A stretch of 64,000 nt of DNA, taken from Octopus vulgaris. Lineage: Eukaryota. The notes beneath the pieces are model-generated. The model saw only the letters and a program-made list of their open reading frames with translations. It made no database searches and was not told the DNA's origin. The position numbers and the translations under genes are program-made. Positions 61,661-62,455 of the stretch are shown in pieces. The stretch spans positions 28,024,001-28,088,000 of the forward strand of contig OX597830.1 in assembly GCA_951406725.2 (NCBI GenBank), given 5' to 3'. Position 1 is the first letter of the stretch. Every line of letters starts with the position of its first letter.

Positions 61661-62455
61661 ACTTTATAATTAGGGTTCAGCAAAGATTTGCTTTATCACA
61701 TACCGAAGTTTAGAAATAGCAGCCAAAAAACCTTAGCTATTTCTTCTACTTCAAAAAGTAATTATAAAGTATTACTTAAGTTTACTGTGAAATGGTCCTT
61801 TTTCATGCCGGATTCTACTTGGTGAAATTATTGATTACTTTTTAATTAATTAATTTTACCCTTTGTTATTATTGATAATAGAATTTTCTCCCTGATAAAA
61901 AACTACAGATTTTTCTATAGTATTTTACTTGACGACACACGCGGATGGGCAGGGGAAGGTGATAAACCTCATTCGTATTTTGAATTCGGCGGTATTAACA
62001 CTGAATATGATCTGTCTGATATCGTTAGGTGGAGAGATATGTTCAATCCTTCCAGTACCTTCGATTTTAATATTTTTAATATTTAATATTGTTGGAGTCC
62101 CATGCCGATGAAGAAAATGGGTGGGTAAAGTATAATTCTATATTCTTTATACCGATCTAATTCCGAAACGTGCGTACATGGGTGACCAGATATAGATTGA
62201 TTGTCGTTATTTTCCCTCTCTGCCTGCGTGGATTGTTTTCAAGTATTTTGGTTTTTAAAGTAGAAAAAATAGGTAAGGTTTTTTGGCTGATATTTCTAAA
62301 CTTCGGTATGTGGTAAAGCAAATCTTTGCTGAACCCTAATTATAAAGTATTACTTAAGTTTACCGTGAAATGGTCCTTTTTCATGCCGAATTCTACTTGG
62401 TGAAATTATTGATTACTTCTTAATTAATTAATGTTACCCTTTGTTATTATTATTA
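61661..62455 (+). mobile_element. non-autonomous Penelope-like element: inverted 5' segment plus a partial-tandem ~580-bp unit with an HHR
   Basis: 61661-61757 is the reverse complement of ~62252-62348; ~61759-61872 is a direct repeat of ~62338-62450; both ends abut (TA)n. Confidence 0.8.
62099..62182 (+). ncRNA. type I hammerhead ribozyme (CCGAUGA variant, long stem II)
   Basis: CCCATG-CCGATGA-[long imperfect hairpin incl. TAAAG/CTTTA]-GAAAC-GTGC-GTA-CATGGG; perfect 6-bp stem I, ACG/CGT stem III, GUA triplet. Confidence 0.75.

Follow-up and report, generated by a model that had tools for sequence, protein, structure and literature searches.

For one Penelope-like element (PLE), the protein was shown to cut and extend both strands of AT-rich DNA, and its reverse transcriptase (RT) to start at two internal RNA sites which bound a genomic tail (Frangieh et al., PMC11167929). 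In vitro, insertion by this one PLE did not need hammerhead cleavage, and uncleaved RNA was the main template (PMC11167929). The hammerheads of these elements are described as having an unpaired base between positions 9 and 10.1, a G10.1-C11.1 pair, a long stem II and a palindromic stem III, and are reported to cut poorly (PMC4209133). Palindromes at the inverted junctions of PLE insertions were interpreted as traces of self-priming (Arkhipova et al., PMC3846280). Four named Octopus Naiad and Hydra families target (TA)n tracts, and Naiads are reported to be long inactive in cephalopods (PMC8557442). Recent activity was attributed to 31 Octopus PLE families with 336 insertions, and the accessible part of that report on O. 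vulgaris makes no mention of ribozymes (PMC13282606). Non-LTR retrozymes of animals were described by Cervera and de la Pena 2020 (PMC7229834) and by Li, Clavereau and Pollet 2026 (bioRxiv 10.64898/2026.07.22.740005) and have been proposed to be non-autonomous PLE derivatives; in the accessible portions of these two papers, the claim that PLE move retrozymes rests on co-occurrence, tandem layout and homology to PLE pseudo-LTRs (pLTRs).

The locus analyzed here lies in a 64-kb window (the whole stretch of Octopus vulgaris DNA under study, 64,000 nucleotides) and carries the integration footprint itself on an ORF-less hammerhead unit, including an inverted head, a partial tandem, two fixed ends and a TA target. 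The best reading of its 578-nt unit is a non-autonomous Penelope-like derivative of a retrozyme-like kind. The insertion is regarded, with a probability of about 0.75, as a decayed copy of a non-autonomous, PLE-mobilised family, likely inserted in trans by the RT and GIY-YIG endonuclease of an autonomous PLE. Non-autonomous PLE and animal retrozymes were already known; the value of the locus lies in the full PLE footprint on a hammerhead-only unit and in an unusually long tail. No description of the 578-nt family was found in the literature on octopus or cephalopod hammerheads and retrozymes, and Repbase, Dfam, the O. vulgaris repeat library or the supplements of the 2026 preprint may list it.

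Layout and surroundings of the insertion

The insertion was refined to 61659-62458, about 800 non-coding bases, and consists of a 99-nt inverted arm, one extra G and then 700 nt which amount to 1.21 copies of a 578-nt unit with a GC content of 33% (Table 1). The first-pass annotation of this DNA had described an inverted segment of about 97 bp, which corresponds to the arm (94/99 identical to the reverse complement of 62252-62350, E 4e-40); its start at 61661 was a fair placement given that the first 2-3 bases of the arm are indistinguishable from the TA tract. The arm had been said to mirror the sequence just before the second direct repeat, and this stands for the last 85 nt of the unit before that repeat, to which the first 14 nt of the repeat itself have to be added. 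The direct repeat of the unit's start, given as about 113 bp, was recovered at 61759-61873 against 62337-62451 (111/115 identical, period 578) and can be extended to 122 nt (61759-61880 against 62337-62458, 115/122 identical), in agreement with the claimed unit of about 580 nt copied some 1.2 times. The last bases of the second terminal segment, up to 62458, have decayed into (TTA)n and (TA)n. Both ends abut (TA)n, as had been noted; the left tract measures about 16 nt and the right one about 97 nt, and any target-site duplication would be hidden within the latter.

The region where the arm meets the direct part forms a short hairpin with a 6-bp stem and a 2-nt loop once the arm change at 61752 is set aside, and this head-to-head junction is likely a snap-back or fold-back joint. 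No further copies were found in the 64-kb window, where a 17-nt motif matches only two places, both inside the insertion.

Table 1. Features of the insertion (positions are those of the 64-kb window).
Feature	Position	Strand	Basis and remarks
Left (TA)n target tract	61646..61661	.	Follows microsatellite tail of LINE 3' end
Inverted head	61659..61757	-	Own 3' end at family end A (62350), without tail; 94/99 identity
Head-to-head junction	61747..61760	.	Extra G at 61758; read from sequence
First copy of 122-nt terminal segment (partial tandem, pseudo-LTR-like)	61759..61880	+	Repeat comparison; end 61880 recurs on (TA)n
Body of 578-nt unit, non-coding	61881..62336	+	Frame and Pfam searches
Predicted long-range helix	61927..62244	+	About 61927-61966 with 62203-62244; encloses hammerhead and two hairpins
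Type I hammerhead, PLE kind	62099..62182	+	Descriptor match; predicted cut after 62176
Second copy of terminal segment	62337..62458	+	62337-62350 to end A; 62351-62458 is the 108-nt optional tail to end B
Right (TA)n target tract	62457..62553	.	Sequence

The left neighbour (60595-61636) is the 3' end of a LINE, with a frameshifted zf-RVT domain (E 1.6e-9) and a long pyrimidine-rich 3' UTR, which is likely of the L1-Tx1 type; among its 12 protein relatives, Argonauta hians is named for two, Octopus bimaculoides for one and a bacterial MAG for another, so that the LINE suggests an octopod host. The LINE end recurs at 39356-39461 (89%), and because this second copy runs into (TATC)n without the hammerhead insertion, the left boundary of the insertion is fixed. 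The last 50 nt of the LINE (61586-61635) resemble the ends of short repeats at 2859-2905 and 34835-34881 (74%, E 0.005), a likeness of the kind seen in a LINE-SINE pair with a common 3' end. Decayed fragments at 35824-36737, 53899-54690 (minus strand) and 63043-63250 are presumably related to the RT of RTE-type LINEs, as judged by eye from their translations. No host gene is evident in the 64-kb window, and nothing suggests a host function for the insertion locus, in itself an ordinary decayed repeat.

The hammerhead motif, its predicted folding and the coding content

A central hammerhead with a perfect 6-bp stem I and a GUA site had been claimed for the unit, and it was retrieved as the single match when both strands of the 64-kb window were scanned with a type I descriptor. 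The descriptor, which accepted either C or U as the fourth base of the core, a choice made after the motif had been seen, matched 0 of 2000 dinucleotide shuffles of the unit. Stem I is formed by 62099-62104 and 62177-62182 (six Watson-Crick pairs), and the remaining parts are the core at 62105-62111, GAAA at 62165-62168 and the GUA triplet at 62174-62176. A62112 is unpaired after the core, G62113-C62164 corresponds to the G10.1-C11.1 pair, and stem II is long and imperfect, with 12 of 15 positions paired in one register. Stem III has 2 bp and is self-complementary (self-duplex of -8.8 kcal/mol), which suggests that the hammerhead would act as a dimer; since it is predicted to cut only in that form, it would act at source loci with at least two units. 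The Rfam hammerhead models gave no match at gathering score in the 64-kb window, and the only four Rfam matches at E up to 10 in 61600-62500 are unrelated chance ones. PLE-type hammerhead variants are poorly covered by Rfam. The core of this copy reads CCGAUGA, a private U4C change, and such a change is said to lower hammerhead activity considerably in vitro (PMC3088659); this copy is likely dead.

A long-range helix is predicted between about 61927-61966 and 62203-62244 (duplex of -42.6 kcal/mol, 0/500 shuffles as strong), most of whose listed pairs have a probability above 0.8; the region gives z -3.1 with 0/100 shuffles, and was picked after the helix had been seen. When this copy is folded freely, its core bases are drawn into other pairs and the active core does not form (z -0.77, 40/200 shuffles as good), forcing the hammerhead fold costs about 5 kcal/mol, and stem I reaches a pairing probability of 0.26-0.35 in the circular ensemble.

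The longest stop-free frame in the insertion has 78 codons, and a Pfam search of seven frames found no family near cut-off in any of them (7/7). No relic of an RT or a GIY-YIG domain was detected in the unit, and a 52-residue read-through frame gave no PLE protein match. The earlier proposal of a non-autonomous unit with a Penelope-type footprint is supported. Several candidates were discarded. A spliced relic ORF, in which a GT..AG interval at 62125-62243 would connect the ATG at 62117 with a hydrophobic frame of 25 codons, was set aside, as the 15 listed joints include no such skip; what looks like a splice donor at 62272-62277 is private to this copy; and the 52-residue read-through had 0 matches in one search and one spurious match, to an FG-GAP repeat protein, in another. 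Exact motif scans of metagenome contigs, prokaryote genomes and viral contigs returned 0 loci. No autonomous partner was found among the families compared: the displayed ends and hammerheads of Octopus Naiad and Hydra families, judged by eye, are unlike the unit, and a 14-nt terminal motif had no match in the text of the Craig 2021 supplement, whose sequences are line-wrapped and partly cut.

The 578-nt unit in public sequence runs

Part of the insertion is contained in 20 of 24 listed public runs (10 studies, 4 organism labels); none of the 24 holds half of the sequence words and none is on record as RNA. Four of them (X1, X3, X8 and X12) were aligned to one exact unit, 61813-62390, at 80% likeness, which yielded 2369, 822, 2123 and 205 contigs, respectively; the other 20 count as evidence through the listing alone. 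Run X12, which may be RNA or DNA, was not taken as a sign of expression. The 578-nt unit is a multi-copy family. The first-pass annotation had named uniqueness of the unit as the outcome that would speak against it; the four runs gave the opposite, and the tandem junction and the conserved hammerhead that it proposed to look for in other copies were both found, the former in at least five diverged pieces among 32 listed and the latter with the canonical core CUGAUGA. The results below were drawn from 40 of 98 variant rows, 24 of 493 loose-end rows, 15 joint rows and 32 of 5617 contig pieces.

Core position 62106 is U in 100% of the depth in all four runs (18, 11, 17 and 7 contigs), which restores CUGAUGA; C at 62171, present in 88-98%, makes stem III a perfect palindrome, and 62176 is A or C, so that the triplet is only GUA or GUC among the rows listed. 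The family thus agrees with the type I core (CUGANGA, GAAA and an NUH triplet), from which this copy departs at U4C. A consensus of four loose-end contigs in X3 (62105-62134) has A at core position 7 with the rest of the core kept, which hints at subfamilies. At least 16 of the 578 sites of this copy (2.8%) depart from the family majority. When the family letters at 16 departing sites were set against the predicted fold of this copy, 4 improve a pair, 2 weaken one, 5 break one and 5 are neutral or unpaired. Hammerhead bases drawn into helices other than the hammerhead account for three of the five broken pairs and for one of the two weakened ones, and the outcome is therefore mixed, if mildly favourable.

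Taken together, the arm pair and the repeat pair show 9 differences over 214 sites, which amounts to some 2.1% per copy. At three of the five differences between arm and unit the arm carries the family letter (the other two lie outside the variant rows listed), which indicates that arm and unit diverged after insertion. The parts of the insertion were likely identical when it inserted, and the locus has decayed by some 2-3% since.

Other copies of the family end where this one does. Among the loose ends listed, they run into (TA)n after 62350 (end A) in 24 contigs of X1, 24 of X8 and 5 of X12, and after 61880, equivalent to 62458 (end B), in 8 contigs of X3 and 31 of X8. These recurring ends, 108 nt apart, are the left and right ends of the present insertion. 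A third recurring end, at 62337, lies 13 nt before end A and leads into AT-rich sequence in all four runs (7, 3, 6 and 2 contigs); the direct part of this insertion starts at it, and either a minor RT start or a nick inside the element is conceivable there.

The tail-to-head junction at 61880 is bridged by at least five of the 32 listed pieces (one in X1 and four in X3), with at least 31 letters on each side. These pieces differ from this copy at 13-20 letters, each 10-12%; they therefore come from other loci, and the 578-nt ring is not peculiar to this one. Three more listed pieces cross the junction with a shorter overlap and were left uncounted, and joints which go back by 578 are not independent support because the aligned stretch was cut inside the terminal segment. 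Strand changes make up 6 of the 15 listed joints, each in one contig and at a different place. Several listed pieces begin or stop at 62251-62256, the point at which the inverted head ends as well, and 17 gaps occur in one X1 piece that spans this region; a length-variable site and longer variants of the unit are likely.

The distribution of depth along the unit is uneven. Summed depth at 62293-62332 is 42-104 times above the median of 61893-62132, although contig depth is no measure of copy number; the excess at the 3' end fits 5' truncation, and a 3' end shared with other families or collapse of contigs would look alike. The same profile may be read as that of a terminus common to a larger family, with the last 280 nt far deeper than the upstream body, in which case the abundant 3' ends would belong to an autonomous PLE and the 578-nt unit would be its pLTR and tail with the ORF deleted, a dead by-product that does not spread as an independent family. 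The order of hammerhead, RT start sites and body matches that of the element PAc (PMC11167929), retrozymes were reported to derive from pLTRs (bioRxiv 2026.07.22.740005), and a branch into an ORF might lie beyond the 24 of 493 loose-end rows listed. This reading is unlikely in view of several results. The tail-to-head junction occurs in at least five diverged pieces from two organism labels, and depth passes from the junction into the upstream body without a step; no more than 1-2% of the aligned contigs continue into unlike sequence, and the 24 listed loose ends contain no consistent ORF-like continuation; and the unit holds no protein relic. Moreover, an inverted head of its own and the two ends of the family are present in this copy, which implies that the ORF-less RNA itself was inserted.

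A repeat made at the DNA level, such as a MITE-like element or a satellite unit whose repeats arose by local duplication and whose hammerhead is fortuitous or captured, would fit the 99-nt inverted repeats and the lack of an Rfam ribozyme match, and unequal crossover was proposed for the tandem growth of retrozymes (bioRxiv 2026.07.22.740005). Such an origin is largely refuted and must be considered highly improbable: the right partner of the arm sits 108 nt inside the element and not at its end, 3' ends are common to the copies while 5' sequence is lost, inversion points vary between loci, and the motif arises in 0/2000 shuffles by chance and is conserved in the family.

Insertion, template and relation to known systems

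The PLE-mobilised origin favoured here can be laid out in four steps. A PLE enzyme would nick both strands of the (TA)n tract. One DNA end would then prime at internal start B (62458) and be extended by copying 700 nt, a length that exceeds one unit and takes the copy straight across the hammerhead cut site, and the other would prime at internal start A (62350) and be extended over 99 nt, which would give the inverted head and leave the tail on one end only. Finally, the two cDNA ends would be joined head to head by snap-back or fold-back. The extra G of the junction might come from snap-back synthesis, or from fold-back followed by loss of about 75 nt; self-priming, by analogy with other PLE junctions, may be an alternative origin of the joint. 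The two fixed ends are as would be expected of two RT start sites bounding a tail. Judged by title or opening of the abstract, the twin-priming papers listed do not deal with inversions in PLE.

Since the template would have been read through an uncut hammerhead, it should have been a multimer, a circle or the product of an RT template jump, and a simple linear monomer running from hammerhead to hammerhead does not fit; if both cDNAs came from one RNA, that template was at least 785 nt long or circular. An uncleaved multimeric transcript is somewhat favoured as the template, a circle is possible with clearly lower odds, and an exact template jump appears improbable. A circle accounts for the data no better than a linear multimer does.

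A true retrozyme cycle differs from the preferred explanation in the template only. The hammerhead, acting as a dimer, would cut a transcript of at least two units into 578-nt monomers, a host ligase would close them, and the RT of a PLE would copy the circle 1.2 times. Retrozymes of coral, mussel and axolotl have proven circles, and PLE were proposed to mobilise them (PMC7229834), and a circle would keep yielding copies of more than one unit despite 5' truncation. In the present data, this copy is intact through the cut site, four listed X8 pieces extend across it, the family retains the core and the palindromic stem III, and the circular unit folds better than its shuffles (z -2.1, 60 shuffles), with a paired fraction (0.64) that equals theirs (0.63) and so shows no excess. 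Hammerhead mutants, however, left PLE insertion unchanged in vitro, where unprocessed RNA was the dominant template (PMC11167929); only one of nine Xenopus retrozyme dimers was reported to cleave in vitro (bioRxiv 2026.07.22.740005); poor cutting is described for PLE-type hammerheads (PMC4209133); and if one RNA gave both cDNAs, a direct part that ends 14 nt from start A would be more simply accounted for by a linear multimer. No array of two hammerheads was seen among the listed contigs, none of which spans the whole unit. The ribozyme processing and circular template suggested by the first-pass annotation are tentative: the hammerhead is intact across the cut site and no pile-up of copy starts at that site was found among 24 of 493 loose-end rows; depth just upstream of it is no lower than downstream, a weak indication because contigs blur ends. 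The retrozyme cycle is thus a possible but tentative reading, and its fullest version, an octopod retrozyme whose hammerhead-cut 578-nt circle is copied in rolling-circle fashion by a Penelope enzyme from two internal starts 108 nt apart, is more doubtful still.

The 578-nt unit is short enough for many insertions to exceed one unit, and hence the lengths and junctions of insertions across the assembly could tell circle, multimer and template jump apart. If the circle reading is true, such copies would directly tie the circles of animal retrozymes to the PLE machinery and give PLE hammerheads a job. The 108-nt tail bears on whether the two-start-site rule found in Anolis extends in vivo to an element of quite another kind.

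In common with animal non-LTR retrozymes, as far as these are documented in the two retrozyme papers, the unit is non-coding and low in GC (33%), has one type I hammerhead and head-to-tail junctions and lacks LTR features, and its 578 nt are covered by the unit lengths of Li et al. (51-972 bp). Cervera and de la Pena describe retrozymes as units of 150-450 bp arrayed in tandem, and circRNAs are proven for three animals, whereas the present locus is a dispersed 1.21-mer with one hammerhead. The hammerhead here has PLE-type features, in contrast to the canonical 4-bp stem II of retrozymes, and the inverted heads, two fixed ends and tail present here are unreported for retrozymes in the accessible parts of both papers. 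Li et al. count at least two consecutive hammerhead-bearing units as the mark of an active element; with one hammerhead only, this locus would be a monomer derivative in their terms and is accordingly filed as retrozyme-like only.

Closer parallels are found among the PLE. Two direct repeats, one inverted and shorter copy and a tail at one end only are also described for Pen2a of rotifers (PMC3846280). Two alternative 3' ends with the hammerhead upstream of them, an AT-rich or (TA)n target and a hairpin at the inverted junction are shared with EN+ PLE insertions (Pen2a; Anolis PAc, PMC11167929; scheme in PMC8557442), and the same layout is given in PMC8969392. Unlike an autonomous EN+ PLE, the insertion is devoid of an RT-GIY-YIG ORF. 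At 108 nt, its tail is roughly three times as long as the tails reported for PLE (30-40 nt; PMC8557442, PMC3846280), and its ends lie 174 and 282 nt after the cut site, against some 85-92 nt in PAc (by subtraction from the positions in PMC11167929).

Movement of ORF-less or foreign sequence by PLE enzymes has precedents in the Chlamys MRC1 element (PMC8557442) and in the pLTR-flanked cargo of rotifers (PMC3846280), both of which likewise yield pLTRs and head-to-tail copies. MRC1-type elements generally match their autonomous partners at the 3' ends, and algal Chlamys elements are mostly described without canonical hammerheads (PMC8557442), as opposed to the hammerhead-bearing unit of octopus. 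The features of the PLE footprint found at this locus comprise the pseudo-LTR partial tandem, the inverted 5'-truncated copy, the tail between two recurring ends and the (TA)n target.
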